DNA of 64,000 nucleotides, from NCBI RefSeq assembly GCF_964213995.1, contig NW_027590275.1, positions 310,001 to 374,000 on the forward strand, read 5' to 3'. Below the pieces are notes generated by a model. That model saw only the letters and a list, made by a program, of their open reading frames with translations, was not told the DNA's origin and ran no database searches. Source of the DNA: Mustelus asterias. Taxonomy: Eukaryota. Position numbers and translations under genes: made by a program. This document shows, piece by piece, positions 1,903 to 64,000 of the stretch. How positions within the stretch are numbered: the first letter of the stretch is position 1; each line of letters begins with the position of its first letter.

Positions 1903-2277
1903 ATGGTTGATGAGAAGAAAGCAGCTCCGAAGAAGGGGGCGAAGAAAGTGATTAAGAAACCGGTAGTAAAGGGCGGCAAGAAGCGGCGAAAGTCGAGGAA
2001 GGAGAGTTACTCCATCTACATCTACAAAGTGATGAAGCAGGTTCACCCCGACACCGGCATCTCCTCCAAGGCCATGAGCATCATGAACTCGTTCGTGAAC
2101 GATATTTTCGAGCGCATCGCGGGTGAGGCTTCCCGCCTGGCCCATTACAACAAGCGCAGCACCATCAGCTCCCGGGAGATCCAGACCGCCGTGCGCCTGC
2201 TGCTGCCCGGGGAACTGGCCAAGCACGCCGTGTCGGAAGGGACAAAGGCGGTGACCAAGTACACCAGCTCCAAGTAA
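1903..2277 (+). CDS. H2B: Histone H2B (replication-dependent), 124 aa
   Basis: MVDEKK...[27 protein letters not shown]...KYTSSK; real ATG at 1903; followed by stem-loop. Confidence 0.98.
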
Positions 2278-2313
2278 AACCCCCCATGGACTGAATAACA
2301 TCCCAAACACAAC

Positions 2314-2355
2314 GGCTCTTTTAAGAGCCACTCACAATCTCCCTGAAAAAGCTGT
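2314..2355 (+). promoter_or_regulatory. Histone 3' stem-loop and HDE
   Basis: GGCTCTTTTAAGAGCC at 2314-2329, then purine-rich GAAAAAGCTG. Confidence 0.95.
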
Positions 2356-3376: not shown

Positions 3377-3826
<450 letters not shown>

Positions 3827-5516: not shown

Positions 5517-6752
5517 AGTAAGAAGTCTCACAACACCAGGTTAAAGTCCAACAGGTTTATTTGGCAGCACAAGCTTTTGGAGTCTCAGGCTCCTTCAGGT
5601 GAGTGAGAAGCTGTGTTCACAAACAGGGCACATACAGGCACAAACTCAATTTACAAGATAATGGTAAGAATGCGAGTCTTTACAGGTAATCAAGTCTTAA
5701 AATTACAGACAGTGTAAGTGGAGAGAGGGCCAAGCATTGGTTAAAGAGGTGTGTATTGTCTCCAGCCAGGACAGTTATTCATATTTTGCCCAGGCAAGTT
5801 GTGGGGGTTACAGATAGTGTGACATGATCCCAAGGTCCCGGTTGAGGCCGTCCTCATGTGTGCGGAACTTGGCTATCAGTTTCTGCTCAGTGATTCTGCG
5901 TTGTCATGTGTCATGAAGGCCACCTTGGAGAACGCTTACTCGAAGATCAGAGGTTGAATGCCCATGACTGCTGAAGTGTACCCCGACAGGAAGGAAGCAC
6001 TCCTGCCTGGCGATTGTTGAGCGGTGTTCATTCATCCGTTGTCATAGTGCCGGCATAGTCTCTCCAATGTGCCATGCCTTGGGACATCCTTTCCTGCAGC
6101 GTGTCAGGTAGACAACATTGGCCAACTCGCAAGAATATGTACCATGTACGTGGTGGATGGTGTTCTCATGTGAGATGATGGCATCAGTGTCAATGATCCG
6201 GCACATTTACCGAGGTTGCTGTGGCAGGGTTGTGTGGTGTCGTGGTCAATGTTCTCCTGAATGCTGGGTAATTTGCTGCAGACAATGGTCTGTTTGAGGT
6301 TATGCGATTGTTTGAAGGCGAGAAGTGAGGGTGTGGGGATGGCCTTGGCGAGACGTTCGTCTTCATACTTGACATGTTGAAGGCTCCGGAGAAGATGTCG
6401 TAGCTTCTCCGCTCTGGGGAAGGATTGGACAATGAAGGGTACTCTGTCTATCGTGTCCTGTGTTTGTCTTCTGTGGCACATCGGAACTGTCGATCAATGA
6501 GTCGAGCACCATATCCTGTTGTTATGAGGCATCTTTCAGCGTCTGTAGGTGTCTGTTGCAATACTCCTCATCTGAGCAGATCCTGTGTCTGCAGAGGGCT
6601 TGTCCACAGAGGACGGCTTCTTTAACATGTATAGGATGGAAGCTGGAGAAGTGGAGCATCATGAGGTTATCCATGTGCTTGCGGTACAGTGAAGTGCTGA
6701 GGTGACCGTCCTTGATGGAGATGCGTATGTCCAAGAATGCAACCAATTCCAG
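5517..6752 (-). mobile_element. Penelope-like element, 5'-truncated (RT C-terminus + GIY-YIG + pLTR)
   Basis: Degraded frames FLDIRISIKDGHLSTSLYRK...HFSSFHP and PLLAFKQSHNLKQTIV; 3' end shared with the 38216-39336 element; absent from the paralogous arm. Confidence 0.85.
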
Positions 6753-6878
6753 ACACACAGACATCTTATTAGTTCAACGGTCTCAGAGAGCAGAAATAGT
6801 TGCAGACACATTTTCAATCCATCAATCAAACAGAGCAGGAGAGACAGACATTTTTGTCCATGTGACTCTAAATATCCT

Positions 6879-6961
6879 ACCAGGATGGCCGAGTGGTTAA
6901 GCGGTTGGACTTAAGATCCAATGGACTTATGTCCATGTGCATTTGAACCGCACTCCAATTA
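6879..6961 (+). pseudogene. tRNA-Leu(TAA) pseudogene
   Basis: 5' half ACCAGGATGGCCGAGTGGTTAA...TTGGACTTAAGATCCAA intact; B box and acceptor 3' strand degenerate; paralog of 49322-49404. Confidence 0.8.
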
Positions 6962-6971
6962 AATGGACTTT

Positions 6972-7550
6972 TAACACTACATTCTGCACCCTCTCCTTTT
7001 CTTCTGCTCTATGTGCTGTATGAACTGTCTGCTTTGTCTGTATAGCACGCAAGTAAACAATACTTTTCACTGTAAACCAATACATGTGACAATAATAAAT
7101 CAAATCAAACCCAGTACCATTGATAGTGGGATCCATAAATCCAAGTCCAAATTGACTCCTGCCATCAGATCATCACAGTGTCAATCCCACAATAGAGCAG
7201 CCTTAGCTCCAAATTAAATATATGATAAAACTGACACATGGAATCTAATTAAAAGTTACACAATGAACATTAATAATGTACTCTGAGATTCGACTTAAAT
7301 ACATCACGCAAATCAGGGGTTTTGAATTGACTGTACTAATGGCCACAGTGAATATTCGCAAATACATTTGATACAAATCCAAATCTGAAACACATTCTCA
7401 GATTGAGGTATGATTTGATTTATTATCGTCACATGTATTAGTAAATAGTGAAAAGTATTGTTTCTTGCGTGCTATACAGACAAAACATACCATTCACAGA
7501 GAAGGATAGGAGAGAGTGCAGAATGCAGTGTTACAGTCATAGCTAGGGTG
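6972..7550. mobile_element. Two short Rex1/Babar 3'-end fragments (6972-7110 +, 7412-7550 -)
   Basis: Match the 3' UTR and AATAAATCAAATC tail of the Rex1 copies at 28.9 and 34.4 kb. Confidence 0.7.
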
Positions 7551-13234: not shown

Positions 13235-14246
13235 CACGGCCCTCTGTTCGTCTGCAGTTTCCTGCATCTCGCCACAAACATAACCACTCTGCTCTACGAC
13301 ATCACAAGGACGTTTCAAACTAAATGTGTTCCCAAGGATAATCTGTTTCTGTCACTATGAACTTTTCTCGTTGTTCTTTCAGCCGGTGTAAATCCAGAGA
13401 ATGGAAGGGATGGAGGGAAAAATCTTTCCCGAATCCTATTTGATCATCATTCCAATAACATTTGGGTGAGGAAATCTAATCGTCAGTCTCTGTGAAAAGC
13501 TGTATCCGGCACCTTCCTATTCGATGGTTAGAATGTAAAATGGAATAACTTCGACTGCTGTTTGTGTCTCCTGTCCTGTAAACCAAACACTGACCCAGAA
13601 TTCACTCACTGCCTTCGCTTTGTGCTGAAAACTGTTATTATTCTGTTATTTTCACAGCTCCTAAATGACCTCATTAGCGGCTATTTTTCGCGGTAACGGT
13701 CCCTTCCCTCAATTCCTGAAATGTTCATTGATTCATCATTTTATTCACAGTAATTCTCCGCAGGGTAACATTCCGGAGTGGGATTATTACAGAGCGGAAT
13801 AAGGACAGTGTGCGGACTCGATCCGGCTCCCTGTTTTCTGTGAAGGAGAGTGGGTTCTGATTGAAGACGAAACGGAGTGTTTTCCTTCTGGGAATGCTGT
13901 GAACAGGGATTGATTCCCGCCCGGGACAGTTAGAAAGCGATAGGAGAATGAAGCACATTGAAAGAAAATGTTAAAGCCGCGCCTGCGATTGGTGACGGGA
14001 AGAGCTGAATAAAAGCAAATCAATAGAAGGGATTTGAAATCTCTGACTGAGGGCGACATTGATTTGAATTCGCTCCTTTCCCACAATGAAATTGGCGGGC
14101 TTTTGGAAATGGACAAATTCTCTGCTTCTGCCGGTTGTTGTGGGGAAATCCCGCCCTCTTCTGTTTCCAGTGAGCTGATTGGTGAAGAATATAGGCAAAT
14201 GAGGTGAATAGAGCAGCGGCCAATCAGAGGAGCTGTCAGTTTATAA

Positions 14247-14696
<450 letters not shown>

Positions 14697-15470
14697 AGCG
14701 ACCATTCTTTAATCTGATAACCCAAAGGCTCTTTTCAGAGCCACTCACTTTATCTGAAAAAGGGCGACCTGGTGTCTATCGGTCAGTTTCTGCACTGCTA
14801 TTCATAGCACAGCTGTTTCCCGCTTTGTTCTATCAATCCGTACTATTGACACATACAGTATTTTAATGCAAGTCGCTGCTGTTTATTGGGGAAACTATCC
14901 CAGTGAACATAAATGATCCTATTTCAAATATAATTGCTTTAAAATGTGATAATCTGCGAGGACATTCATCTGCAGCCCATCGGTTTTCAAAGTCAGTCAC
15001 TATCTGGAAAAGTGTTAATGTCTATGCGAATGTGCAAGCGTTTCTGCAATGGCTATATCGGTGTGAGTGGGTTACTGTTTGAGATATGCTTCATATTCTG
15101 AACCTAATTGACGCAATTTTCAACACTCGCTGCGACTCGAAACATGTGCGAAGAAAGTGGATTTGCGGAATTATTGCTCGGAAACTGAAATGATCGCAGG
15201 TTTAATAAAACCACTTTAAAATTGAATTGCGGTAGAACTGTTAACGGCATCGCTTTTACTCTAACCATCAAAGGATTGGAGATATGAGTGACCTCAATGC
15301 AACGGAGAGTTAATTGTTAGCATGGAGAGGTTTCGGTACTGGAGTCCTGGGAATATTCTGTCCTGGGAATTCAAACACTAGAATCGTTAACAGGAGATCG
15401 CAGCTCTTTCATTTGCCGATTTGGTGGCTCTTAAAAGAGCCGTTGTTGGACTTGATGCTGAAGTCGGGGT

Positions 15471-16004
<534 letters not shown>

Positions 16005-17232
16005 TCAAACTCTGACCGGGGAATTAATGTCTGTACCTCAGGTTCTGATTAGTTCAGTTGTTTTGTGAACCGCGCCTTTCAGAAATTGGGCCGTTTTCGA
16101 TGCAGGAAATAGCCGTCTGTATAAAAGACTTTATCCCGTCCTTATTAAAACAAACATTACTCGAAATATTGAAGATTTGAAGTCTATCTCCCTGCACTTA
16201 GTGCTTTAGACCCTTTTCCCGCTCTCTGGGCTGTTCATTCCCAGAATCTCCCGCTGTTCCACTCGATCCCTGTCCCTTTCCTCACCAGCCCATTCAGATT
16301 TCCCCTCTCCTGCCGCTTGTAACATTCGCCGCCGTTTCCGGGGGACAGGATCAGAAATCCTTCTCTGTGTCTCCCTGACGCCGGTGTGAAAGGGGTTGAG
16401 TCTGTTGTTTGTTACAGAGAGTGACTTCATATTTGTCCCGTTTGACATTACTGAATAGAGCCGTTTGCCGCCCGTGGCGGACAAATGTTCAGAAATGAAA
16501 CCTCTTTGTAAAATAATCTTACAGCAGAATATTAATTGAGAATCTATTTTTAATAAGTTAAGAATTTGTCTCAATTCCCTTTCCCGCGCTGAAATTGGCG
16601 GCATTTCCCCAATTCAAAATTTCTGCTGGTTGACAGTTGAAGCCAATGATTGGCTCAATGTTCACATTCGATGCTCTGCGATTGGTTCAGAGCTGCGAAT
16701 GCGGAGAGGATGGCCAATCAGAAGCAGGCTGGGGTTGGAGCGGCTCAAACTGCGGGAATTGCGGTTTTGTGAATGACTGAGCGGAAACTGATCAGTTTCA
16801 CAAAGCCTGTCAGTTTCAGTGCAGGAAACAACCGTCTGGGGTCAAATAGCATCACAACTGGGACTGGTCCCAGTGAACGATTCACCGGCTGCTGCTACTA
16901 AACTCCGCTATTCCAGAGAAAGCTTTTATAAACTCGATCCAAACACTGAGTGATTAAACAGGAGTGATGTGGCGTTTCACTGAGGGCACATGTCAACTGG
17001 GGACTGCTCAGACAATCCACTTAAAAATTTCAAAAACAATTCCCATCGCCGCTCCAAATGAAATGTTAAATTCGGTGATTCCCGCACTGTAACCTAAACA
17101 AAACAAACATGCATCTCAAACACTGAACAGCCTGTCCCAGCTGCCGTTCCCAGGTCACTGCTCTCTCTGTGAAGCGGTGAGTGGCTCTTAAAAGAGCCTT
17201 TGTTGTGTGTTCGGGAGGAAGGTTGCAGTTGT

Positions 17233-17553
<321 letters not shown>

Positions 17554-18427
17554 TCACTCAGATCACTGCACAATATGAGAGAGGAACTCTTTCAGGCTCC
17601 TTTCATACAGCCCGCACCGACCTGACTGAGAAAGGCGGAGTGAGAGCAGAGAGGGGAGGAGACAGAGTGAAGATTAAACACAGAGCGGGAGGGAGGAGAG
17701 AGCCGGACTGACACACACACACAGAACGGCCCCTGATCTTTCAGCTCCACCTCCAGTTTCTGCAACCGCCAATTTCAACCCGTTTAATAACAATGGAAGC
17801 GAAACACAGCTCCCCACACAAACCCTTCCAGAGCCGCCCTTCACAGTCAAGAGTTTCCACAAACCTGGAGCTTTGAAATATGGAATCAAAACAGAAAATG
17901 CTGCAAATAATCAGCAGCTCCCGCAGCTTTTGTGAAGAGGGAGTTAATGAGTCGGTTCGTGACTTTTTGCTTTTGTGTTTAAAACCTGGCCCCGTTATGA
18001 TTCCCAGTCAGTAATATTCCGACTTAAACACAGCAAGAATCGAGGAAGAATCTCCCTCAGGAACATCCTCACCCACATCCGCTTCCAGCTGTTTACAAAT
18101 ACCTTATTGCAGCTGTTTGGGGAAATCTCCTGTGTTAAAATTGAAGTTGGAAAGCGGTATTTAGCCGCCAGTGTTACTGTCTCACACTGAATCTACCAGA
18201 CATCTTTATTATGAGAGAAAGTGGCGATTGAACAAATGTGAAATTCAAATGAAATTCAGCCTCTGCTGTGTTTTGCTTTAGTCTGAATTTGAAATGATCT
18301 CTATTGAGAATGAGCCGAGCCGCGGGACAGGAATCATTTTCTTGCGGGATCAGCTCTTTCCTGAGAGATGTGGGTGGCTCTGAGAAGAGCCTTTGGGTTC
18401 AGAGGTTTACAATTTGCTCGGGTTGTT

Positions 18428-19078
18428 TCACTTCTTTCCTGGCGCTTTCTTCGCTTTTGCTGCTTTCACTTTGGGTTTGGCCTTGGATTTAGTCACTTTT
18501 TTGACAGACTTTCCGCCCGTCACCTTCTTCACAGGAGACTTTTTCTTCAGGGCTGCTTTCTTCACCGCCTTTTTTGGAGTTGCCGCCTTCTTGCTGCTTG
18601 TTTTCTTCACTGTTGATTTCTTCACTGGAGTTTTCTTTGCTGCGGGTTTCTTGGCTGCTGCCTTCTTTGTTGTCAGCTTCTTGGCCGCTGTTTTCTTTAC
18701 TAAAGATTTCTTGGCTGTTGGTGTCTTCACCTTCTTTCCCATTTTCCCCGGGCTTTCCTTCTTAGCGAGTTTGAAGGAGCCGGAGGCGCCCTGTCCCTTT
18801 ATCTGCACCAGAGACCCTGTCTCCACCTTCCTCTTGATCGTTAACCTGATCTGGGAGACGCGCTTCCCCACATCCACTCCGCTGCCAGCCAAAGCTTTCT
18901 TTATCGCGGCCAGGGACATCCCCTTGCGATCGCTGCATCCCGCCACAACATTGAGGATCTGCTCGCCTAACTTGGGACCGGCTGCCGCAGGTCGGGGAGC
19001 CGCCTTCTTCTTCCTGGGAGACTTCACTTGAGCGGGAGCGGCTGGAGGAGCCGTTTCGGCGGCTGCAGTTTCAGTCAT
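18428..19078 (-). CDS. H1: Linker histone H1, 216 aa
   Basis: MTETAAAE N-terminus, globular domain ending GQGASGSFKL, Lys/Ala/Pro tail with S/TPxK motifs; stem-loop GGCTCTTCTCAGAGCC 18376-18391. Confidence 0.97.
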   Translation of the reverse strand: MTETAAAETAPPAAPAQVKSPRKKKAAPRPAAAGPKLGEQILNVVAGCSDRKGMSLAAIKKALAGSGVDVGKRVSQIRLTIKRKVETGSLVQIKGQGASGSFKLAKKESPGKMGKKVKTPTAKKSLVKKTAAKKLTTKKAAAKKPAAKKTPVKKSTVKKTSSKKAATPKKAVKKAALKKKSPVKKVTGGKSVKKVTKSKAKPKVKAAKAKKAPGKK

Positions 19079-20682
19079 ATCCGAGAGTGTGTGGAAAATC
19101 TGTGTGAGAGTCAGAACTGGATCCGAAATGAACCCAGTGGTGGCGGCACAGAGCAACTTAAAGGCAGAGAGCGGACGGAGCAGAGACAAGCTGCTGTCAG
19201 CTCCCGGCTCCTCCAGCCTCTCTGTGTTTCTCTCTCCTCACAAACTCTCCCATTGCAATGAAATTCCGCCTCTCCAGAGATCCAGCTCACATCCTTCATG
19301 TCTCTGACACACGAATGTTTGCTGTTGAAAAGGTTTCACTCGAACTGAGGACTCCATTTTCCACTGAAACCCGTTTTACTGCTGCACTGATCGCGCTCTC
19401 ACACGCGATAGCTGACATGTTCTCTACTTTTCCACTGAATTCTTCAATTTAGCGAAACAATTGCCTTGAAATCTAACTTTGGGGCTCAGCAGGGGGATTG
19501 GGGGGAATCTTTGATTGAAAATCGTTTTATTTTACACAAGAGAGACTCGGAGATCTCATGATCAGAACAGACACACAAACACAGTTGGATTAGTCTGACC
19601 CGCCCGCTCCTTTCATACACTCTCTCTTACACAATATTCACATCTACACATTCACAGGACAAAACTTTCACCAACTGTAAGGTCCCAGGACGGAATTTCT
19701 CCTCCTTCCGGCCTTTGCTCCGGATTCCAGGGGGTTAGTTATAGTTTTTCATCTCAGTAACTGTTAAACACTCTGAAGCCCGCTCCCTGCAGATTGCCTT
19801 TGAATTCATTCATGGAATGTGAGTGTCGCTGTCTGGGTCAGCATTTATTGCCCATCCCTAATTGCCCTTGGGAAGGTGGTGATGAGCTGCCTTCTGGAAC
19901 CGCTGCAGTTCATGTGGTGTGGGACCACATCTGTTTACCAGATTCCGTGGCCAGAGCTAATAATATCTGGGGGGGGTTTCAGTTATTATAGTGATTGCAG
20001 ACATCATTGTGTCTTTCGGGTGAAAATACAAATTATTTGCTCTCGGAGTCTCTAGATTTCCTGTTTTATTTGTTTCTTCTGCACTGACAGGTAACAGTAA
20101 ATCACAACCTCAACAACCAGTGACAGCCAGTTAAATAATCATCCCCCACTCGCTGAAAGTGAAGTTTCTGATAGTGATGGACAGTTTCCGACCATCCTCC
20201 GATTGGGCCTGAGGAAACCAGATTCACTGTCAAAGCTGAACTTTGTTACAGAAGGGGTGGAAGTGCCAGGTGAGCGATGGTGGTGGAGTAGTGACTGTGC
20301 GAGCATTTGACCAAGAGTCAGTTCCTGACCATCACAGTGGTGATTTATTTAATTAACTATCGCAGGTCACAACAGCAGGTGGGCATTCCTAAAATAAAAT
20401 TCACTAAAGATTCTCACCATCACTGTGGTTCTAATGGAAAATCCAGCTTCAATTTACTTTGTGGAAACTTTGTTAAAATGAAAGAACAGGCCTCAAAACT
20501 AATCAATGAGTTCTCAGTCAGAAACAATAGTAAAAAGGTGGCTGAAACTGTCCAGAAAAACGAGAAAAGCCAAGTTCAGTTTACAAACTGTGCCATGGAC
20601 ACACCAAATGTCTGATGAAATCAGCAGCGAAGGTAGTTCCTAATTATAACTATTGAAAAGAAGGGCTGTTTGAGCAGATTGA

Positions 20683-44592: not shown

Positions 44593-46285
44593 CCTGGGTT
44601 AGTTACACAGGCCACCATTACATTGAATAAAACAGCACAAGGAATTAAATTTAAACCCATCAGCATTCCGAAAGAGATTTCCTCTCCCTTTAGTGTAATA
44701 CTTCCTCTTATCTAAAGTACAGCCTCAAAATGTATTCCTATCCTTATTTGTCCAATGACATTTTGAATTTACTTTTCATTCTAATTGGCTTCGATTACAG
44801 GCATCATATTCAAGATCACAGCAATTTGCTGCCCAATAGAACGACAAATGTGTTCCCTGACGGTTTTCTTTGTTCTTTTATATCATTCACAACGAACCCG
44901 TGCCATTGTTTCACAGAAACATTTTCTTTCAATTTACTCCATTGAAACTGATCACGATTTTACTCACCTCTCTGAAAACTCCTCTCAACCTTAGTACTGA
45001 CTTCAAACGGTATGAATGCAGGCAGTATGAATTTAGTTTCGAAGTTCTGTAATTACATAACAAGTGAGCTGCTGCAGAGACAAACAGTTAATAGCAAATA
45101 TTTCAGATCAACATCTGCCCATCAGAACTGGTTGAAGTTAGAAATGTAATACATTACAGGCAAATGGAGAGGAGAGGGGCTCATGTGAAAAAGAACGAAA
45201 TGGAATATCTGTGACATGCACACATGCATTAAATAATAAGAATTAGTTACACAATGAAAGGGATAATCACCAGATACATAAAGTAAGAAAAATCTGAATG
45301 GAGGAGAGGTGCTCTGAACACCAGGAAAGACCCAGGACAGAATGATCCACGTGAGAGTGAGATGCAGAATGAAAATGGCAGGTGACTAGAAACTGTTATC
45401 AGAAATTCAATCATCATTGTGAACTAATTGGAAATGTTCCAAGTGTGGGACATGGGAGCGACACACTTGAGAACCCTGCCAGCCACAGAGCAGTGAGAGG
45501 ATTGGTTGAGGAAAGGGAAGAAATATCAGAAGTTCCCGAATGGAAGGCCGCATTACCTTTCCTCACAGTTCAGTGTCTATATGCAGGAGAATTAGCTTTT
45601 GCAACATTATATTTTTTCTAAAATTTCACTGCTAATGATGTGCTCTGCATTGGTAGATTGAATGACTGCTTTGTGGAACATCTCCCATCAGTCCAGAAGC
45701 ATGACTCAGATCCAATCCTGAACGAGAATCCCAAACCTAAATAAAGTAAACTAGGAAGTTATGAGAGGTGAGTTTGCTAAAATAGATTACAGATCAATAG
45801 ATTCATAAAATGGCATAACGGTCGATAGGCAATGGCTAATATTTAATGTTTAATATTTAAGGCATAGTTGTATGTAATGAAAGAGTTATACATTCCTTTC
45901 CGGCACGTAAACATAACTGGAAAGTGCCCCAATCATGGCTAACAAAATAAATTAAGTAGTATTGGATCCAAAGAAGAATATGAGATTATAAAAGCGTGGA
46001 GCATCAGTAGGCCATTTGTCAGCTCGAGCCTGCACCGCCATTCAATAAGATCATGGCTGATCTTTTCATGAACACTACACAAATGATCAGTCGGTCCATT
46101 CTCCTTTGCCTGTGCCTCCTGTCAGTCTCTTGCTGCTTTTATGTGTGTTCCATTCTTGGTGTATTAAACATGGAATTGTGCCGCCAGGCGGAGCTGCCTC
46201 ATTTTCTGACATTAAACAGCAATGCAACAGTGACATTTTGTCCTACTACAGCTCAACAATAATAAGCAGGAAGCTGTTAGGTAAT

Positions 46286-46357
46286 AGCAGAGTGGCGCAG
46301 CGGAAGCGTGCTGCGCCCATAACCCAGAGGTCGATGGATCAAAACCATTTTCTGCTA
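46286..46357 (+). tRNA. Initiator tRNA-Met(CAT), probably non-functional copy
   Basis: Four substitutions from the vertebrate iMet sequence as recalled; TTTT terminator at 46364. Confidence 0.8.
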
Positions 46358-47532
46358 TTCACCTTTTCAGGAGCAGTTTGAAAGAAAAACATTTTGCAGT
46401 TCCCCACAAGTGTCTCTTCTATTTCTTTGCAGGAAACAGTTATTTTCATCAATTCTCGCTTGCAATAAACAATTTGATCTGCAACAAGCTCACTGCTGTA
46501 AATGCTACAAACAGCTTTCCCACTTTCCTCAGGGCAGTTCTGACAGTCAAATGACCTTTAAATCACAGAATCCCTACAGTGCTGAAGGAGACTATTTGGC
46601 CCATTGAAACTGCACTGACTCTCCGACAGAGCATCCCATCCATGTCCTATTGCCAGAATCCCACGCACCCACCCCGCTAATCTACCTGACCTTCACTTTT
46701 TGCCACACAAAGGGCAATCTAGAATGACCAATCCACCCAACCTGCACATCTTTGGACTGTGGAAGGAAGCCGGAGTACCCGGTTTCCAGATGTAACTTGC
46801 CTGGGTGAATGCAGCTCCAACAACACTAGAAGTTTGACACTATCCAGTACAAAGCATCTGACTTAATTCGTTTCCCATCCACAAAGAGTCACTCCCTGCA
46901 CCAAAAGTTAAAGTTAAAGTGTATTTATTAGTCACAATAAGGCTTATGTTACCATTGACAGACAGGGTCAGCAGTGCACACCATCTACAAGATGCATTGC
47001 CAGAATTCACAAAGGTTTATTTGACAGAACCTTCCAAACCCACCATGACTATAGCCGAGAAGGAAAAGGAAAAGCAGATGCATCAGAACAACATCACCTG
47101 GAAATCTCCCTCCAAGCCACTCATCATCAGGGCTTGGAAATATATCGCCGTTCCTTCAGTGTCAGTAGGTCAGAGTCCAGGAACTTCCCACTCCCCAACA
47201 TCCCCCCCCCAAAAAAAAACGCACTATGGGTGTACCTCTATGGCATTGTCAGCAGCAGTTGAAGATTGCAGCTCAGCACCGCCTACCCCAGGGCAATTAT
47301 GAGTGGCAATAAATCCTGGCCGAGCCAGTGATGCCCTCATCCCATGAATGGATAAAGTAAAAAAAAAACAACTGATCAAAAAGGTTCCTCCTCACCTCTG
47401 CCTTAAAGGGCAGGTCACATCTTTCAAAAAAAATTCTGCTCTTCTGGTCACATTTTCAGTGTAATTCTGAGCACAATCAGGATTATTTAGTATGTGTTGC
47501 CCCATTGCAGAATCACATTGTGCAGCAGCGAC

Positions 47533-47729: not shown

Positions 47730-49321
47730 GTGCAATAGAGACCTGCCTGGTGATGTGTATGGTCGGAATTGTCATCATGATCCACCATATCCCCGTAGGT
47801 ATGGGCTGCCCAAGACACACAATCAGTGTTGGAATCAATTCACATGTTTCAGTATCTGGTTCCATTCTGTATCTGAATTTGTCTGGTGTTATTTCTGAAG
47901 GTGCCAGTTATATATATCTGGCAGACACTTATAAAGTGTGTGAGTGTTGGATCATTCTAGACCTGTCAATGGCCTCTATATCTGTGAGCATTTTATATAA
48001 GTGTGGCAAACATCAGTAATTTTAAATCCCCTGCTGCTGCTTATGGAATATATGCTTTAATTCCCTGGTGCTGTTTGCAGAACATCAGCTTCATGCTGTT
48101 CCTGTCAGTGGAATTAATCATGTATGTAAATCTATGGTGCTGTTTAAAATTGTGTGTCTCATTTGGGATTTTTCACTCACGTCTCTCTCTGTCTAATCTT
48201 CCATTTGTTTCCGTTACTCTGTGTGAGCCTTTGGTTGTTTCCAAATCCCTCAGTGATACAATTGGTGTGTGTGTGATTTATTTCATATCACTCAGACTCA
48301 GCTCCTGTGAGTGAGTGCAGTAAACAGCCTGTACTTTTCAGCTGTTGATGCTGAACATGCGATTCAGAACTATTCTCGTATTTATCAGTCTTTGGTATTT
48401 TGTGTGAATATGGGATTAATTAAATAACCTTCAATCTCTGGGACAAGTTCTCTATTTGGATTAATTCCAAATAAATTTCCAACACAGAAATAGGCCACTG
48501 ATGCAGTAGGTTTGAAGCAAATAATGTGTGAGTTTATGCCCAGCAATAAATCTGTTACTGTAAACACAATTGTGAAAGATAATGTATCCTTCAATCTGAT
48601 ACTAGATTGCTATGCAAGTTTCACTCAGGTTGTTCACATTGATTTGATCTGTGACAGTCTGATTCTGAGTAAGAATTTTGACATGTGTAAAATGGAGCTC
48701 AGTCTGGAATTGGTACAGTGTCTTCCATCTGGCTCAGTCTGAGTGAGGATTAGTTTATAATTTATGGTTCAGTTCATAGTCATCAAACTGATATTGTAAC
48801 TTTTAGTTTCATAATCTGGGTGAGTTTTCAACTGGAACCTGAGTTTGTATCTCAGGTTATACTCGCTTTCAGAATATCTCAATCTGAGATTGTCTTTCAG
48901 ATTTGTATCTAATGTATTTGTGAGAACTCGCCATGGCGATTAGTACTGCCAGTTCCAAACCCCTGATGTGGGTGATGTGACTGGTATTTAACTAGAATCT
49001 CAAAGTACATTATTAAGGTTAATTGTGTAACATTTAACCAAAAAAGCATTTTACGGTTTTATCAGATACTGAATTTGGAGCTAAGGCTGCTCTATTGTGG
49101 GATTGACACAGTGATGATCTGATAATGGTTTGGACTGGGATTTATGGATCACCCTGTCAGCGGTATTGAGATTGATTTGATTTCTTATTGTGACAAGAAA
49201 TAATTACTATGCTGTGAAAACTCTGGTTTCTTGCGCATTTTACAGACCGAGCATACCGTTCGCAGAGTATATAGGGGAGAAGGAAAGGAGAGGGTGCAGA
49301 ATGTAGTGTTAAAAATCCTTC

Positions 49322-49404
49322 TACCAGGAGTGGGGTTCGAACCCACGCGGACATATGTCCGTTGGATCTTAAGTCCAACGCCTTTAGCACTCGGCCATCC
49401 TGGT
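49322..49404 (-). tRNA. tRNA-Leu(TAA)
   Basis: ACCAGGATGGCCGAGTGCTAAAGGCGTTGGACTTAAGATCCAACGG...GGTTCGAACCCCACTCCTGGTA followed by TTTTT; D-loop GG changed to GC. Confidence 0.85.
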
Positions 49405-50658
49405 ACGAAAACTAGACGTGATAGGGACACAGCGTCTGCCATTCCTGCTGTTTGATTGCTGGATTAAAAACGTGCCTCTGGAATCATTTCTGTTCTCGGA
49501 GACTGTGGAATTGTGAGAAGAAGCTGGGACATTCTTCCCTGTAACTCCTGTGGAGGAAATATCTGGTTTCTTCAAATATTTATCTGTGGAAACAAAGTAC
49601 ATCTAATATCTCAAATACAGATTCCGTCAGTTTAATCTCTATTAATAATCATTGTGAGCGGTTTGCGAGGCTGCAGCCAGACTCGAGCTCTGATTGGACA
49701 CTCCCATGTCAATCCAATTCTTCACCAATCGGAGAGCAAGGGAGAAGAAATGGGAGGTTTTGTTTGGTTCACATTTTCAAATTGGAATAACCCGCCAATT
49801 TCAGTGCAGGAAAAATACAAAATAACGGAACGCCTGAATGTTCAGGAAACTATTTCAATCTCACGCTTTATAATTTGTTTATTGTATTTTCCCTCACAGA
49901 ATCTTGGCGTTATTTTAGGAACAGTTTGAACTTTTCAATCTCTTATCTGTAACCGGCGGTAATCAGACCCCGTTCAGCAATTTAAAACGGAGCAAATCTC
50001 AGCTCAGTGGAAAAGCAGAAACATAGAGATCACCAACCAACCCCTTCACACAGGCTTCACAGGGACAGAGGGAAACGGCTGATTTCTGATCCTCTCCCCT
50101 GAAAGCTGTCGGGAATGTTCCAATGGAAGGTGTGGAGAGAATTCCTGACTCAATCCCGCCGGTGGAACAGGCAGCTTTGTGCCCGGAGAATAGGGAGCGC
50201 CGGGGGGAGGCAGATCTTAAAGCGCTGCAATGAACTCAGGTCCTGTGTGTGCACAGATCTCGCTGATTCCGTCCTCTGGGAAAACTGCGGAATAAACAGA
50301 TCAGCCCGAGAATAACCTCTTCATTCCCGCCTTTATTCTGTTCCGGGAGCGGTGCCCAGATAACTCGAGTGAAAAAAAAACCTTATTCTGAAACTGAATA
50401 TAGTTATCATTAAATGTAAATAATTACATCCTGATATTGTGCTGGGCCTCATTGTCCGTCACAAATCCCAGACTGGGGTTTAAAATCTGCTCTCAGTTCA
50501 GTTTGATTGTTCCTTCAATCTGAGTGTGCGTGTGAGGGGCGGATATGACGTCCCATTCACAGCATTCCGGAACGGGACAAATCTCTATCCTTCAGAAAGA
50601 GATTTCTCATTAACTCAATAAGGGAAAAGATGGCGCAGATTTTTCAGAGATTGTGGCT

Positions 50659-50674
50659 GGCTCTTAAAAGAGCC
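50659..50674 (-). pseudogene. Orphan histone stem-loop (H2B-type 3' end) without CDS
   Basis: Perfect GGCTCTTTTAAGAGCC with flanks resembling the H2B 3' end at 2301-2355. Confidence 0.75.
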
Positions 50675-50861
50675 GTTGAGTTTGAGGTGTTTTTCAGCCA
50701 TCAATCTTTGATGCTGTTTCTCACTCTGGGGCAATTGTGTACCTGTATTTAAATAATTACCTCAGACATGGTGCTGGAAATGATATTTCTAACATATGTA
50801 AAATGTTCTCCAATAAATAGCATAAATTTACATGCATTAAAACACCTGGGTCAATAATGTG

Positions 50862-50941
50862 GTAAGAAGTCTCACAACACCAGGTTAAAGTGAGACTTCT
50901 TACTGTGTTCACCCCAGTCCAACGCCGGCATCTCCACATCA
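50862..50941. mobile_element. 80-bp fold-back Penelope terminal remnant with 11-bp TSD
   Basis: GTAAGAAGTCTCAC...GTGAGACTTCTTAC plus tail; TSD TCAATAATGTG at 50851-50861 and 50942-50952. Confidence 0.85.
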
Positions 50942-51109
50942 TCAATAATGTGCACAGGGCGAACTACGGATTGATAAAGCAAAGCGAGAAACAGCTCTAC
51001 TGTGAATAGCAGTGCAGTGTCTCTGACGGTTAAACAGATCACCCTTTTACAGATAAAATGAGTGGCTCTGAAAAGAGCCTTTGGGTTATCAGATTAAAGA
51101 ATGGCCGCT

Positions 51110-51559
<450 letters not shown>

Positions 51560-52824
51560 TTATAGCTCCGGGAGGAATGGAGGTGTGGACATTGCTGATT
51601 GGTCACTTTGTTGCTGCCTCTCAGCATCTTGTTCATATGACCAATCAGAAATCTGCTTAACTCACCAATCCGGAGAGCCCACGGAGTGAGGGCGGAAAAT
51701 AACGGCGCCAAAATCTCAGATTCCAACCGATTTCATTTCAAACTGTAAAAGCCGCCAAAGCGGAAAGAACAAGAGTTTCGGAAATTATTCTAATCGGTAA
51801 TGGTGAATTCATTTTGAGTAATGTAAGAATCTCCCTTTCTCTCTTCCCCAGTCTATAGTTAACCTGTATCTGGCAGTCTCTGATTTTCAGTCTGGGTTTA
51901 TCTGAAAACAAGCCGAAAATAAATTATTCAAATTTGGAAACTTCGCAGATATATTTCTCAAACAAGAAATACGGTTAATAACAAATCCCATCAATAATTA
52001 ACTATCTATCAACAACGTTTTTAAAACATCAGTCTATGTTTGCACAATTTCACGTTTTATCCCAAGTTGCAGATTTGCTTTTCGAATGCGGGATACATTC
52101 GGGGTTAATCTCTTTCTTTTTCAAACTCTCGAACCAGCCGCCAGAAAGTTTCATTGACATCGTTCTGCAAACGGACGGGCTGTTCTCCATCTTCGTCGAG
52201 ACTGAGGGTTCCTGCACAACCGGGGCTTATCGGGAATAAACTGATCGGTCATTGAGACCAAACTGGAAACTGAGGAGTTTGCACTTTTTCCCCCCGATTC
52301 CGCGTGGTTTTCCTGCGGGCACTCCGCTTTCTTCCCACAGCCCAAAGGTATGCGGGTTGGGTGGATTGGCTATGCTAAATTGCCCCAGTATGAGGGGGAT
52401 TAACAGGGTAAATATTTAGGGTTACGAGGATGGGTGAGGGATTGTTGTCGGTGCAAACTCGATGGGCCAAATGGCCCCCTGTACTGCAGGGATTCGATGA
52501 TTCTGACACATTTGCTCCATTACCTCGCTCTCTCTCTAAAGCCTGGAAAAGGGACCGAATATCAACGCGTCTGAGATCTAAACCCAGAGAGGGTGAGGAA
52601 CCAGTTAATTAATTTTAAATATTACTCAGACCCAATGATCCACGGGGCGATTGACTCCGTGTCTATCATTGATAACCAGAAAAACAACAATTATCATTGT
52701 TCGAGACGCTGCGTCGTAAAATAATAATTGAAACTAAATGGATGATACAGCCTTTTCCCAGGGATTGTGGGTGGCTCTTAAAACAGCCGTTGTGTTTGGG
52801 TGCTTTTCAGTCCATTGGGGAGTT

Positions 52825-53202
52825 TTACTTGGAGCTGGTGTACTTGGTCACCGCCTTTGTCCCTTCCGACACGGCGTGCTTGGCCAGTTCCCCGGGCAGC
52901 AGCAGGCGCACGGCGGTCTGGATCTCCCGGGAGCTGATGGTGCTGCGCTTGTTGTAATGGGCCAGGCGGGAAGCCTCACGCGCGATGCGCTCGAAAATAT
53001 CGTTCACGAACGAGTTCATGATGCTCATGGCCTTGGAGGAGATGCCGGTGTCAGGGTGAACCTGCTTCATCACTTTGTAGACGTAGATGGAGTAACTCTC
53101 CTTCCTGGATCTTTTCCTCTTCTTGCCGCCCTTTGCTGGCAGCTTTTTCTGCGTTTTTTTAGCGCCCTTCTTGGCAACCGGCGCTTTCTTCTCATCCACC
53201 AT
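52825..53202 (-). CDS. H2B: Histone H2B, 125 aa, intact ORF but probably impaired
   Basis: H2B fold with G75R; stem-loop mismatch GGCTGTTTTAAGAGCC at 52773-52788; promoter interrupted. Confidence 0.9.
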
Positions 53203-53365
53203 TGTCACAGTTAATTTCAGACACAGAATCACTGAGTCGCGCTCGGAACTCCTCTTTTAAAGCCTGGAAAAGGGACCGAATATCAACGCTTCTGAGATCT
53301 AAACCCAGAGAGGGTGAGGAACCAGTTAATTAATTTTAAATATTACTCAGACCCAATGATCCACG

Positions 53366-53703
53366 GGGCGGCACGGTAGCACAGTGGTTAGCACTGCTGC
53401 TTCACAGCTCCAGGGTCCCGGGTTCGATTCCCGGCTCGGGTCACTGTCTGTGTGGAGTTTGCACATTCTCCTCGTGTCTGCGTGGGTTTCCTCCGGGTGC
53501 TCCGGTTTCCTCCCACAGTCCAAAGATGTGCGGGTTAGGTTGATTGGCCAGGTTAAAAATTGCCCCTTAGAGTCCTGGGATGCATAGGTTAGAGGGATTA
53601 GCGGGTAAATATGTGGGGGTAGGGCCTGGGTGGGATTGTGGTCGGTGCAGACTCGATGGGCCGAATGGCCTCCTTCTGCACTGTAGGGTTTCTATGTTTC
53701 TAT
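53366..53703 (+). mobile_element. Full-length young HE1-type V-SINE
   Basis: GGGCGGCACGGTAGCACAGTGG head to (TTTCTATG)n tail; almost identical to 58137-58474. Confidence 0.95.
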
Positions 53704-54294
53704 AGACCAAAGCAGAGGCCTATGCTAATGAAGCATGGCTGAAAGCCCTGTTCCTCATTGGCTCATTCACAGTGATGTCAATTCGTGATGCTGTCTCTGA
53801 TTGGTTAGTTTAGACACCCAAACACATTGGTTGCTGCACAAATCCACAAACTGTCTGTTGTCAATCCGTCCTTTCCCCTTGTCCGCCCCGATCCACCCAA
53901 CCCCCTGACCCTCTCACTCCCTCTCCCGCACCAGCGCATTCTCTCTGCTGCTAATCCCACATCACTCTATCAGACTGCTGATACTGTTCATACATTTCCC
54001 CTTCCTCACCAGCACCAACTGCTCTGCTTTACTTCCGCCCATCACCGGGAGCTGGCAGTGCAGAATATCTGGGCTCAGACAGGGGTTAATGCGAGCTCTG
54101 CTGTGCGTGTTAAAAGGGAATATGTTTGATAAGCAGCAGCCACAAGTCCCACATGTGACACTAACATTGTGGCTAAAACAGAAAAGTGACTGAAAGAAGG
54201 ACTGGAATGAGAGTTGGACATTACTGGCTGCAAGGTGTTCAGGGACGATTAGTCAAACAATCCCGGAGGGTGATTTACTGTTCAAAGCAACTAT

Positions 54295-58474: not shown

Positions 58475-58846
58475 TAATGTGGTGGAATTATTTCCCTGAG
58501 TGGGTGATTCTTTGGAATTATCAGTCCAATGGGCTGTGGAGTCTTACTTGTTGATTAAGTTCATGAGTGAGATGGATAAATTTCTACGTATTAGTAACAT
58601 CAAGGGATATGGCGATACAGCAGGGAAATGGTGTTGAAGTGGAAAATCAGCCATGACCTCATTGTGTGACAATATGGGCTCAAAGAGCTGAATGGCCTAC
58701 TCTTCCTCACAATTTACATCTTTAATTATGTTTCAGCATGGTCATCATTTTGTGACTGTAATTAATGAGAAATGACTCCAAGGTTCTTTTCGTATCCTGT
58801 CACAATGTGACTGTGGCTTTAAATATAGAGCTCGCAGCGCCAAATT

Positions 58847-59479
58847 TGCCGTGGTTCCCCGTGGACGGCAAGAAGAATTCATCAATCAGAATAGAGAGTC
58901 TGAGTCTTGATCTTCCAGGCAGCAAGGCTTTATTAGCTAGTACATTTCAATAAAGCCGGGATTCCCAGATGAAATCCAAAAAACCAGTGCTCTCACAGTC
59001 CTTTTTATCCACATTTAGCTTCATATTTCATCATTCTTATCTTACAGTCAAGGTTTTTTTGTTGCAGACCCCAAGGCCACTTTTCGTTAGCCACCATGAT
59101 TTACTAGACCTACGTTATCTGCCTTCTTTCTGTTTTTTCACGAATGAATGTGCTATGATATCACTGTGGTTACATCCTGCCTTCTTATCTGAAGTTTATT
59201 GTCTAATCAGCCAAGGTTGTTGCTTGTTCAACCATTGTAGGGCATCCTGCTATGCCAAGTCTTTTTTCCCGTTGTCTGACTTTCTCACGTTTATTTAAGA
59301 AATTACTTTCAGCTTCTATGTTCATTTATGCGAGTATCCATGTGTATGCTTAATAAGATATGTGATATATATGAGAACTTCTTAAGTAGTGATTATCTCT
59401 TCTATGTTAATTATTATCTCCTACTTGTCCTAATAATTATTCCTTCCAATATATGTTGTCTTAATGATTATTCCTTACA
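58847..59479 (-). mobile_element. ERV 3' LTR (~633 bp)
   Basis: PPT AAAGAGGGGATA then TGTAAGG...CA; TATA-like GATAAAAAG near 59005; AATAAA near 58930. Partner LTR is outside the window. Confidence 0.65.
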
Positions 59480-59805
59480 TATCCCCTCTTTGAGACATCA
59501 TTGTCTCACTAAACTATTTCTTGATATATTTTCCCAATATATGTCTTAGTTATGTTTGGTTTCACGAAATGTGGAGGAGCTTAAGTGTAGGATCAATATC
59601 CCTTTTTGTTTATTAATAGCCTAATTGCGAACTGCTCCTCCAGATTTCCTTTACCTGATAGTTCATTAAAATACATTTTTGCATTAATACATTTCATACA
59701 CTTTGTACTAACACATCTCTCCCTCCTTGATTTTGCTTGATCATTTAAGTATTTCCCTCTATGCGTATGGTATCTAGGGTCATATTATCTCCTCTTATTT
59801 TCAAA

Positions 59806-61092
59806 CTATTGATAATGGTACATGCTGTCCATTGCCCTGTTAATTACACATCGACATAAGCATCCTGCTTACGCTATCTCTACTATTATAAGCAGCAGTA
59901 ACATAAATGATTTAAAAATCCAATCAAACATCCCATTTCCCACCCATCCTAACCATCCAGGTGGGTTATAATCATGGAATTCGTGACCTATCTTTTGGAG
60001 TTGGTCTGCTTGTGCCTTGATATGCTTTGCAAGGTTAGTTATATTCTCAGATTTATCTGGTATGTAAGTACAGCATTCTTGTTAAATTATGGCACATGTT
60101 CCTCCCTGCGAGGCCAATAGATAGTCCAAAGCCAGTCTATTTTGCAGGGCTACTGTGCGGACTGCCATCAGTTCTGCTGATACTTCTGTCAAGGCTTGCC
60201 CTGTTTATCGAGCTTCAGCTGCAGTGATATTAGCCAGTTGTTCCAGGGCTGTGGCCATCAGAATTAACTCGTTTGCCGTTCTTCCTGTCCCATGTAATGG
60301 AAAGGCCATCATAAAGAACCAGTCAATCTTACTGATTGTTCGTTTTGCTCGCGAAGGGTAGCTTCGTAGGGAAGGCATGTGGTGCATATAGGGCACTACA
60401 TATCCCAGATAACAGGAGCCTGTCCAGTTCGCAGGAAGCCAGGGATATGCCTTTGTACCGCATATAAAGTAAGTTCCATTGTAGGCCGTAAAGTTATCAG
60501 CCAACGTCATCTAAGGTTGTACAGCTTTTCCTTCCCACACGTTGCTTGATGTGATGTTGCATATTTCAGTCCAGTCTATTTTGAACATACCAGCTGTACT
60601 TAAATCTTTCACAGGTGGTTGCCATTCTACAGTTTGCTGACATTTACTTTCTCCAACTCTTGCTCCATCCACATTTTTCTTTAAACAGAAGGATCCTGGT
60701 CCATTTGATTTTAGGACCGTCGGTACAGGTGGGAACTGGGAATGGTTGTAAGTTGGTTGGTACCATGTAGCAAACCTGGTCATTCTATACCCAGCTGACT
60801 CCCACATTGTCATGTTTCCTCCTTCCCCTGTCTTATTTTGTCTCAATATCCATTCTATAGTTTCTGAAATCTGAAAGGGGAGAGACTGGAGTGGTAGGCC
60901 TTCTTGGGAATGGCTTGGGACATGAGTGCAGACCCAACATTTGCTTATGTTCAATCTTTCTGCATACATATATGACATATATAGGTAAGTATTTATATGC
61001 GATCTGTCTTCTTCCTGTTCATTTTTACTCTTGCCACCCCCCATACTAAGTACTAGTATTATCCCCATCCATCCTACCCCTACTTTTCCCAT
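59806..61092 (-). pseudogene. env: ERV env (gamma-type), single frame with four premature stops
   Basis: Signal peptide, CWVC, furin RAKR, ISD LQNRLALDYLLASQGGTCAII*QECC, TM region. Confidence 0.9.
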
Positions 61093-61405
61093 GCTATCAC
61101 AAGGAGGGAGAGTACAATTTATCACAGTTTACACAATTCTTTTCCCGCGCTTAGTCGCCGCTACTACTATTTAGTTTATACAGTCTTTCAGCTTCAATTT
61201 CAGTGATTTCTCTTGTTTTGTCAGTTCAGTTGATAGCTCAGTTTCCTGGGTCGAATTCGATGAACCATGAACTTGAGCGGTAGAGTTTGTGTCAACAGTC
61301 CTTGTTCCTGAGGAAGGAACATACTGATCACTGGTATACAAATCAAATTTCCATCTTCTTTTAACGCATTGAAACAGATCTTCCCCTCTTTTGCAGTCTT
61401 TAGTG

Positions 61406-61698
61406 CTACATTGCAAAACAAGGAGCGTCAGTCTCAATCAAAGTTATCATGAGTCTATTCGGTGGGGGTAATTCAACTTGACCCCATTCCTGGACTTCTT
61501 GTTCGGGGATTTGTTCATTCTCCATTCGCACTACCATTTGTCGCATCATTAGTCTGGTAATAAAAGATCTCAAAGCAGGCAGTAAACAACAAAAGATTAG
61601 TCCAATTATGATTATTACTACTACCATTATAACCCCGCCTTTGCAAACCATGCTCCCCATTGTCCGAATACATTATCAAGCCAATTCCAAATATTATG
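61406..61698 (-). pseudogene. env: C-terminal remnant of another env (MPER, TM, cytoplasmic tail)
   Basis: NIWNWLDNVFGQWGAWFAKAG, frameshift, then VIMVVVIIIIGLIFCCLLPALRSFITRLM. Confidence 0.75.
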
Positions 61699-64000
61699 GC
61701 CAATTCTTTTGGGCCCATCATAGCTTGTATTAAGGCTTTTATTTGACTTTCATGCTGTATTGGTCCCCCACTACTTTTCATAAAGCCTCTCTGTTTCCAG
61801 ATTGATCCAAACAGATGACACACTCCATGTGCATAAGCCGAATCTGTATACACTTCTACTGCCTCCCCTTTTGCTAATTCACATGCTCTGGTTAGTGCCT
61901 TAAGTTCTGCTAGTTGGGCCGAACAGGGCTGTTCACATTTTTCTGCTTCTATAACTTCAAGTCCTCCTGGTCTTTGTTCAACTATGGCATAGCCTGCGTG
62001 GTTTCCCAAGTGATCCCTGTAGCATGAGCCATCTACATACAGTGTCCTCTTCTCTTCTGTCACTAGTCCCTCTGCTCTTAAGTCTTCTCTCAGTTTCATA
62101 AATGTTTTTGCTTCTCTTAAGCATTCATGTTCTTTTCCTTCATGAGGTAATGGCATGTAATCAGCTGGATTTACTCTGTTGCACTTTATTATCGTGATAT
62201 CTGGGAATGTGGTTAGCATTCGATAATGATGGATCCTAGCAGGTGTCAGCACAAATTTTCCTTGCTCAATCAATTCAGCTACTTTGTGGTGTACATGTAT
62301 GTTTATTAAATATCCCATTGTGATGGTAGCTGCTTTTTCGTAAGCCCACCAAGCAGCTGCCAAATCCTGATAACATGGAGGGTACCCCAGGGCCACATCA
62401 TCTAACTTGGTGCTATAATAAGCTATTGCTTGTTTCTTTCTTCCTTTACAGCTGTCCTGCATTAACACAGCAGTTGCGAATCCTGTTTCCCTGTTGCTAA
62501 CAAAAAGGTCAAAGGGTTTATCATACGAAGGCAGCATCAGTGCTGGTGCTTGCACCATCTCTTGTTTCACGTTATCAAATGCTTCTGAGGCCTCCCTGTC
62601 CCATATCAAGATCGCTTTTAACTCCTCACATCCGGCCTCTTTCATTATTTTCCTTAACGCTTGTGTTTTTTCTGCATAGTTTTCTATCCATTCTGAACTA
62701 AATCCTGTCATTCCTAAGAATGTCATCATCTGTCTCACTGTCTGTGGTTTTGGGATTTTCAATACTGCTTCTATCTGCTGGTGAGCTATTCTTTTTTGTC
62801 CAACAGTTATTTCCCTTCCAAGGTATTCTACTTTTCTTTGACAGAACTGTAATTTATTTCTTGACACTTTATGTCCTCCTTTCGCCAGCTTTCCCAGCAG
62901 TTTTAAACTTTCTTCCCGACACTGTTCCTTTGTTTCTGTACACAACAACAAGTCATCCACATATTGTATCAGTGTTCCTTCTAGTTGTATCCCTGCCAAA
63001 TCTGCTCTCAACACTTGGTTGAATACATGTGGGGAGTGTTTGAATCCTTGTGGCATTCTATTGTACTTTCCCTTGTACTTGAAAGCAAATAAGTACTGAC
63101 TCGCTTGTGCCAAGGGCACACTGAAAAATGCTGAGCATAAGTCTATTACTGTAAGCCATCTGCTTTCAGACGGTATGTTAGTCAATAAGGTGTAGGGGTT
63201 AGGGACTTCTACTGGCATATTTTCAACTACTTCATTAACTGCTCTCAGGTCGTGTACTAACCTCCACTTTTCCCCATCTGCCTTTTTAACTGGTAATAAG
63301 GGTGTGTTACATTTACTTCGGGTTTCTTTTAACACCCCTGCGTCTACTAATCCTCTGATTGTTTCTCTTATGCCTTTTACTGCTTCTGCCTTGATTGGAT
63401 ATTGTGGTTTATAAGGTCCTTGACATCCTGGCTTCAATTTTACTTCGACTGGGGTAGCTGTTTTAACTTTGCCTACATCTGTGTCGTTCATTGACCACAA
63501 TTCCTCAGGGAGAGAATCTAAATCTTTTTCTAACTTTGCTCTCCATTCTTGCTCTACTTCTTTATCTTTTAACTCTATTTTTACCTCTTTTGGTCTTCCA
63601 GTCATCCTTGCATTAACAGATATTTTCATCATTTGTCCGTCAGTCGACATCCAAATATTCTCATTGTTTGCTTTAATAAATTCCAGTTCCTGTGCCCTAA
63701 ACGTCATAAGTCCCAAATCCTTTGGTCTGTAATCAGGATTCACCTTTAGCGTAACATGTGGTTCTGTCTCAGGCACTGAGAACCATTTTCTGACCCATTC
63801 ATTCTTTCTAATTGTGAAGGCTGTTCCCTCTGGTCCGATTAAAATGCTGTCTGAATTTATTTCCTGTTCTTGTCCTGCCTCTTTATTCCACTTCTCCTGT
63901 ATCTCTGACTGTTGTATTTTATCAAAAATCATTGTGCTATGTAGTTCAGTTTTTGGCCATTCGGCGTCTGGAATCTGTGCCTCTACAAATGTCCCCCAAA
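61690..64000 (-). CDS. pol: ERV pol (2H-like domain, RT, RNase H); integrase deleted; epsilon-like
   Basis: WRLVHDLRAVN, IDLCSAFF, MPQGF, YVDDLL, YVDGS...AQLAEL...YTDSAY; frame open to window end. Confidence 0.93.

Follow-up and report, generated by a model that had tools for sequence, protein, structure and literature searches.

The 64,000-nucleotide stretch of Mustelus asterias DNA studied here (the window; assembly GCF_964213995.1, contig NW_027590275.1, positions 310,001 to 374,000) contains the 3' half of an endogenous retrovirus (ERV), which lies on the minus strand between the window edge and 58830 and in which two env genes, called env1 and env2 below, follow one another behind a truncated pol. 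The element reads pol, tail of env1, spacer, env2, two polypurine tract (PPT)-like tracts and one long terminal repeat (LTR), an arrangement shared by many copies and by a second species. We consider it somewhat probable that a class I, epsilon-like ERV family of a cartilaginous fish, with a CNPase-like domain in its pol, gained an unrelated env cassette behind its native env by template switching, and that the cassette is now a broken passenger. Of the LTR-gag-pol-env-LTR order the 3' half is present, and gag and the 5' end lie outside the window. An earlier note, made from the sequence alone, had described a pol which breaks off within RNase H and is joined to an env tail, and all of these parts were found in place (Table 1).

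One layout in many copies

Part of the stretch was held by 19 of the 23 public runs listed, in 10 studies, and none of those with a part of it is on record as RNA. Four runs were compared (X1, X5, X10 and X13), on listings that covered 40 of their 259 differences, 12 of the 29 indels, 24 of the 222 loose ends and 32 of the 729 pieces. X13 gave 17 records, those listed being read-sized with a depth of 2-4, and was not counted. Contig depth is not equal to copy number. Long contigs crossed the joints from env1 over the spacer and env2 to the LTR in three of the four runs. In X5 (organism A, a small assembly) one contig (60116-61722, 8 differences) contains env2, the spacer, the env1 tail and the pol junction, and another, 59384-60085, contains the end of env2, both PPT-like tracts and the start of the LTR. 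In X1 (organism A, deep) near-identical contigs cover the tail and spacer, env2, and the two tracts with the LTR at word depths of 1032-1138, compared to 16-29 for diverged contigs; the family has roughly tens of copies. In X10 (organism E, from another study) a single contig, 59460-61570, links the env1 tail with the LTR and differs at 70 of 2063 positions (96.6% identity).

The host flank beside the LTR had a depth of about 1.3 in X5, compared to 17 on the LTR itself, and the high-depth contigs are without this copy's frameshift, its 9-nt deletion in the reverse transcriptase (RT) region and one of its env2 stops. The low flank depth, together with high-depth contigs free of these private lesions, indicates that the copies arose at dispersed sites rather than by duplication of this locus. 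The element belongs to a young multi-copy family with at least two organism labels, and the joints in X1, X5 and X10 place the capture of the second env, as the earlier note had proposed, at the level of the family and not in a one-off nesting at this locus.

The same contigs date the loss of integrase. At the pol/env1 junction the X5 contig continues across with the depth of the family, and in X1 a contig with a depth of 1066 extends to 61713 or beyond. Among the loose ends listed, those of X5 and X10 lying exactly at 61693 continue RNase H, and the env1-tail piece of X10 ends at 61703-61704, the point at which the window ceases to match the env1 reading of its closest relatives. It is likely that the 11-nt overlap at 61703-61693 is the microhomology of a deletion which removed the end of RNase H, integrase and the env1 ectodomain. 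A short overlap at a junction is the usual trace of a template-switch deletion. The junction is present in the amplified master and not only in this copy. Since the deletion is common to the dominant copies of organism A, it preceded the amplification, and integrase would therefore have been needed in trans. The earlier suggestion that this copy later lost integrase and the env1 ectodomain is not supported, the junction being present on high-depth contigs of both organism A runs. As in trans-complemented, non-autonomous ERVs, many copies share a lesion in an essential gene, with contig depth as the proxy for their number. From the contig ends it would seem that organism E has retained pol and env1 in undeleted form ahead of env2. 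No whole competent helper was seen in the same genome in the four runs, where loose ends at 61693 continue RNase H.

A 13-nt stretch resembling a primer-binding site (PBS) follows the LTR after 4 nt and is missing at the paralogous empty site (window 604-899). It may resemble the 3' end of a tRNA-Ser. A PPT before and a PBS after one LTR suggest that the DNA end was aberrant, or that the copy derives from a one-LTR circle or a former tandem provirus, which would fit an element without integrase.

pol and the two env genes

From the window edge on, pol is open over 827 codons in one frame. It has Pfam matches to RVT_1, RT_RNaseH and RNase_H, and its homology to pol relatives stops at 61692. Among solved RTs, those of murine leukaemia virus (MLV) and the related XMRV gave 291-301 bits, compared to 120 for foamy virus RT and 75 for HIV-2 RT; as an MLV-type RT is the best solved relative, the element is class I. 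A CNPase-like 2H domain with two HxT motifs, which Pfam misses, lies before the RT. The model of this domain (pLDDT 91.7) has CNPase catalytic domains as its top Foldseek matches (E 3e-5, TM-score 0.6), with mouse CNPase as the best. Such a domain in pol is an occasional marker of some epsilon-like fish ERVs (Naville and Volff, PMC4977317; this and the other sources are cited from their accessible parts). The best pol matches were teleost and ray ERVs with 45-60% identity. The RT scores and the CNPase-like domain thus support the earlier assignment to an epsilon-like fish lineage of class I. The pol searches returned no named epsilon reference, i.e. walleye dermal sarcoma virus (WDSV), the swim bladder sarcoma virus of salmon (SSSV), the zebrafish ERV (ZFERV) or Xen1. 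The genus Epsilonretrovirus is characterized by accessory genes and a non-gamma-type Env (Chen et al., bioRxiv 10.1101/2021.11.23.469661); here env2 is of gamma type and env1 appears to be so too, and no accessory open reading frame (ORF) was seen between env and LTR. Within pol, 61975-62400 has an approximately six-fold higher depth in X1 and X5, derived from a related, more abundant element of about 97% identity which shares only that part of pol. X10 shows further pol joints, and the pol lineage seems to have several deleted derivatives.

The env1 tail shares 61% identity over 79 aa (an unbroken piece) with P0002, a TLV_coat protein, so that the env homology of the peptide at 61406-61698, whose absence the earlier note had named as fatal to its idea, is present. 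P0050, a 572-aa env recorded as from Mustelus asterias, matches the tail from 61701 in two frames with a combined E of 2e-19. Since this match is split over two frames, the env1 tail has one frameshift near 61630, and this frameshift is missing from the contigs of all four runs. The gamma-type marks of env1, the immunosuppressive domain (ISD) and CX6CC, are deleted in the window and present in the closest relatives P0002 and P0050.

The second env, previously described as complete, is indeed of full length in one frame but carries four internal stops (60513, 60207, 60084 and 59871). Read with X at the stops, it matches TLV_coat with E 2.8e-18. In its single frame a signal-like N-terminus is followed by a short surface subunit (SU), a furin site, ISD, CX6CC and a transmembrane (TM) helix, the last four being the features of a gamma-type Env. 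It has 47 relatives, the best being P0003 (63% identity), followed by shark PABLB/syncytin-like proteins. The predicted SU (60940-61092 region) is compact, without an N-terminal variable domain: the conserved CWxC lies at residue 51-52 in env2 and P0003, compared to 134-146 in four relatives and 80 in one, and about 85 residues before CWxC, present in four of the five other close relatives checked, are missing in env2 and P0003. P0003, encoded on a 4665-nt contig, is an open ORF of 425 aa with the same compact design. In P0039, a Scyliorhinus torazame gene model, the first 70 residues are env2-like (64%) and are fused to a host FCH-type protein, which is probably a modelling artefact.

Compared to the X5 contigs, this copy differs at 18 of 4203 bases (0.43%), when the region of the related abundant element (61975-62400) is excluded. 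At this level of drift 0.27 stops would be expected in the 428 codons of env2, and four were found (P 1.7e-4, or 1e-3 at 0.7%); there are none in 768 codons of pol. One env2 stop is private to this copy, missing in three runs among the differences listed, and one lies where 83% of 46 relatives have one shared residue. In X10, indels shift the env2 frame near the CX6CC region. As four stops are too many for the copy's own drift and the env2 of X10 is frameshifted, env2 was probably decaying in the master before the amplification. Two open env frames were not found in one provirus: env1 is deleted, and env2 has stops here and a shifted frame in X10.

The two envs, as judged by sequence comparison, are of separate origin. 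A TM tree of 62 rows included the first 30 of 151 env1-type proteins passing a motif cut, 31 of the 47 env2 relatives and env2; the env1 tail of the window, which lacks its ectodomain, is outside the tree and was placed by similarity. The env1-type proteins form one clade (100/99), outside which env2 and P0003 pair with each other (100/99). None of the 47 env2 relatives matches the env1 tail at E 0.01, and the tail scores 71 bits on an env1-type profile (77 tails, the closest relatives left out) compared to 31 bits on an env2-type profile (28 tails). A duplication of env1 as the source of env2 was rejected, there being no DNA match better than E 0.6 and separate clades.

On one Brienomyrus chromosome the locus numbers of P0222, a pol relative, and P0056, an env1-type gene, are neighbours. 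Likewise the pol protein P0228 and the env1-type P0217 are both encoded on Logan contigs of 8659 nt. These pairings are indirect evidence that env1 is the native env of the pol lineage. Pol relatives and env2-type genes are both present in Esox, which leaves room for doubt. Viral-contig scans with P0003 and with pol found nothing. In metagenomes P0002 matched one contig of 2.1 kb, which bears a distant env1-type gene (47%) and has too short a flank to reveal a second env. Two env1-type relatives, P0217 and P0065, have long N-terminal extensions which by eye appear Ig-like.

The spacer gave no Pfam match in two of its frames and contains neither a donor LTR nor gag; the best of its matches among 77 pol C-termini, 15 aa with E 0.015, is not a convincing trace of integrase. 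Its final AG (61095-61094), one base before the env2 ATG, is splice-acceptor-like and ties for second of 392 AG dinucleotides in a crude pyrimidine ranking. A depth step in X10 at 61570 (68 below, 36 above) also falls on an acceptor-like AG, in T-rich TM-coding DNA; 12 ATGs lie between this step and env2, and X10 may be DNA. Downstream of env2 the two PPT-like tracts reported earlier are present, with limits refined in Table 1. The motif occurs twice in the 326-nt 3' region, compared to 0.07 times expected, and once more inside pol. As one of the two is the working PPT, the extra tract alone would have about a 7% chance of being an accident. The 224 nt between the tracts gave a best match to the element's own LTR of 31 nt at 77% (E 0.017). 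Perhaps the upstream tract is the PPT of the env2 donor and the 224 nt are donor U3; the tract and a sequence unlike the element's own LTR fit a capture from the 3' part of a donor. The LTR contig of X5 (58846-59346) has about twice the internal depth. Loose ends of X10 at 59479 show that a different sequence, which has a G-rich PPT, also stands before the same LTR start, and this other internal region using the LTR type is a candidate for a single-env parent or a helper.

Table 1 Features of the element, listed in its reading direction (PBS primer-binding site)
Feature	Position	Strand	Remarks
pol, open at window edge	61693..64000	-	CNPase-like, RT, connection, RNase H cut at 61693; no integrase
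CNPase-like (2H) domain	~63998-63600	-	within pol
RT core	63290-62811	-	within pol
Stretch of 11 nt readable as both RNase H and env1	61693..61703	-	from homology limits and contig loose ends
env1 remnant	61406..61703	-	Trp-rich membrane-proximal region, TM helix, CC motif, cytoplasmic tail; one frameshift
Non-coding spacer, 313 nt	61093..61405	-	ends with pyrimidine tract and AG
env2, gamma-type, PABLB/syncytin-like group	59806..61092	-	full-length frame, four internal stops
Upstream PPT-like tract, then TG	59716..59728	-	from motif count
Sequence between both PPT-like tracts, 224 nt	59492..59715	-	not a copy of the element's own LTR
Working PPT	59480..59491	-	adjoins LTR start; PPT motif itself 59491-59482
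3' LTR, TG...CA, 633 nt	58847..59479	-	AATAAA at 58934; from contig depth and loose ends
PBS-like stretch, 13 nt, after LTR	58830..58842	-	joined straight to host DNA; paralogous empty site lacks it

The window is a histone gene cluster with H2A, H2B, H3 and H1 frames (1377-7411 and 48874-54234; 13790-19237). The cluster holds an old large inverted duplication with 77-89% identity, and the ERV sits in one arm. ARAGORN placed tRNA-Met at 46285-46358 and tRNA-Leu(TAA) at 49321-49405. Three pol read-through copies, P0218, P0338 and P0339, are near-identical (0, 1 and 2 differences in 827 aa), two of them being on a 5.69-Mb contig and one on a 539-kb contig. They are taken as a recent local duplication or haplotype copies of this locus and, sharing this copy's own lesions, were rejected as independent evidence for the family.

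Possible routes to the arrangement

According to the reading we favour, the RNAs of two ERVs would have been co-packaged, and RT would have left the 3' end of the parent for the RNA of the other ERV, copied part of the donor's U3, its PPT, env and acceptor, and returned just behind env1. In this way env2 would have been added between env1 and the PPT of the parent, and env1 kept. A switch between 11-nt direct repeats, of which the junction is seen in the contigs, may then have deleted the end of RNase H, integrase and the env1 ectodomain. The deleted master, with its RT frame open, would have spread to tens of dispersed sites using integrase provided in trans by a helper, with env2 already decaying and not needed.

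Several points weigh against this account. X1 and X5 may be of the same species or source as the window. An intact provirus that combines integrase, a full env1 and env2 was not seen, and the undeleted form is read from contig ends. An env2 donor with its own pol, PPT or LTR was not found. The early death of env2 is a probability argument which ignores hypermutation, and of the four stops only one, absent from three runs, is covered by the differences listed. In the profile comparison the env1 tail (31 bits) outscores env2's own tail (19 bits) on the env2 profile, so that only the difference between 71 and 31 bits counts, and part of the env1-tail signal is generic TM sequence.

Other routes were weighed against the same evidence. 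It is possible, although rather unlikely, that the undeleted parent was a replicating virus which expressed both envs from two spliced RNAs, for two entry routes or receptor interference, and that the copies found here are its decayed, deleted offspring. Such a parent would have had two complete, unrelated gamma-type envs with their own acceptors, as an exchange intermediate or as a two-receptor design, with the open relatives P0002 and P0003 in another host. This would agree with the acceptor-like tract one base before the env2 ATG, but a captured cassette would bring an acceptor in any case. The env2 frame is kept whole, without a frameshift in the window, and P0003 is open with the same compact design; however, env2 has four stops, including the one at the largely shared residue, and is frameshifted in X10. 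The closest env1 and env2 relatives come from one source collection and are similarly distant (61% and 63%), but P0002 and P0003 are on different contigs and have no known linkage. The X10 contig ends fit an undeleted pol and an env1 which continues upstream, with an unbroken stretch from the env1 tail to env2; yet the same contig is unbroken at 61094, which argues against an abundant spliced form if X10 is RNA.

An old nesting at the DNA level appears quite unlikely. A provirus would have entered one ancestral copy in the same orientation behind env1 and lost by deletion the 5' LTR, gag and pol as well as most of the 3' LTR, and the chimera would then have been amplified. A nested provirus reduced to its 3' half would likewise show the order of acceptor, env2, PPT, TG and unique 224 nt, but two extra deletions are needed, and in the spacer there is neither a donor LTR or gag nor a convincing trace of integrase. 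That the locus is a one-off chimera, its depth resulting from tandem or segmental duplication of the histone cluster, is very improbable. The large inverted duplication of the cluster and the three pol read-through proteins on two contigs, which share this copy's lesions, would suit it; the absence of the frameshift, the RT deletion and one env2 stop from high-depth contigs, the flank depth in X5 and the second organism with the same layout stand against it, and it is largely refuted.

Relation to known systems

XTERV1, reported to have two env frames, may be a precedent. It is an epsilon-related ERV of an anamniote, Xenopus tropicalis (PMC8278194, PMC12690878). Fish and amphibian ERVs are known to have exchanged env (Chen et al., bioRxiv 10.1101/2021.11.23.469661; PMC10536682). 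Like the element described here, epsilon-related fish ERVs have a class I RT, in some cases a CNPase-like domain, a gamma-type Env with ISD and CX6CC, and an env of mixed origin relative to pol (Chen et al.; PMC4977317). In those ERVs, however, env was replaced and each has one env, whereas here two env clades stand in tandem. The main text of the Chen preprint contains no mention of 'two env' or 'second env'. An ERV with two unrelated envs was not found in the literature searched, which excluded most subscription papers and preprint supplements, nor in the accessible parts of PMC10536682, PMC8278194, PMC4131045, PMC13511025, PMC12690878, PMC9967133, PMC4977317, PMC10924933, PMC8672886, PMC11334065, PMC13568524 and bioRxiv 10.1101/2024.07.05.601823.

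Non-autonomous recombinant ERVs include recKoRV, the D-type ERVK[2-1-LTR] of cattle, ETn/MusD and IAP I-delta-1 (PMC10924933). As in the present family, the deleted morph outnumbers the competent form and moves in trans. In that group a foreign segment replaces the middle of the genome, whereas here a whole env cassette was added at the 3' end and the deletion is separate. Among shark sequences, the PABLB/syncytin-like envs of Heptranchias (P0005) and Scyliorhinus (P0006 and P0007) are 35-42% identical to env2, and four of the five other close relatives checked keep the N-terminal residues which env2 and P0003 lack; the Mustelus asterias env P0050 is the one matched by the env1 tail.

Both env exchange and trans-complementation are thus known; what appears to be new here is env capture by addition, in a trans-complemented deleted ERV. 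Exchange of env is deduced from the disagreement of trees, each genome having a single env. A family with both a native and an incoming env would be a possible intermediate, in which the cassette is inserted first and one gene is lost later. This add-first route is testable, since natural copies in several shark genomes would reveal the two junctions, the sequence in which lesions arose and how selection acted on either env. Should both envs have been open at the same time, a retrovirus is able to carry two entry proteins. Should env2 have been a passenger only, the family would be a clear example of 3' transduction from one ERV to another, with complementation in trans.

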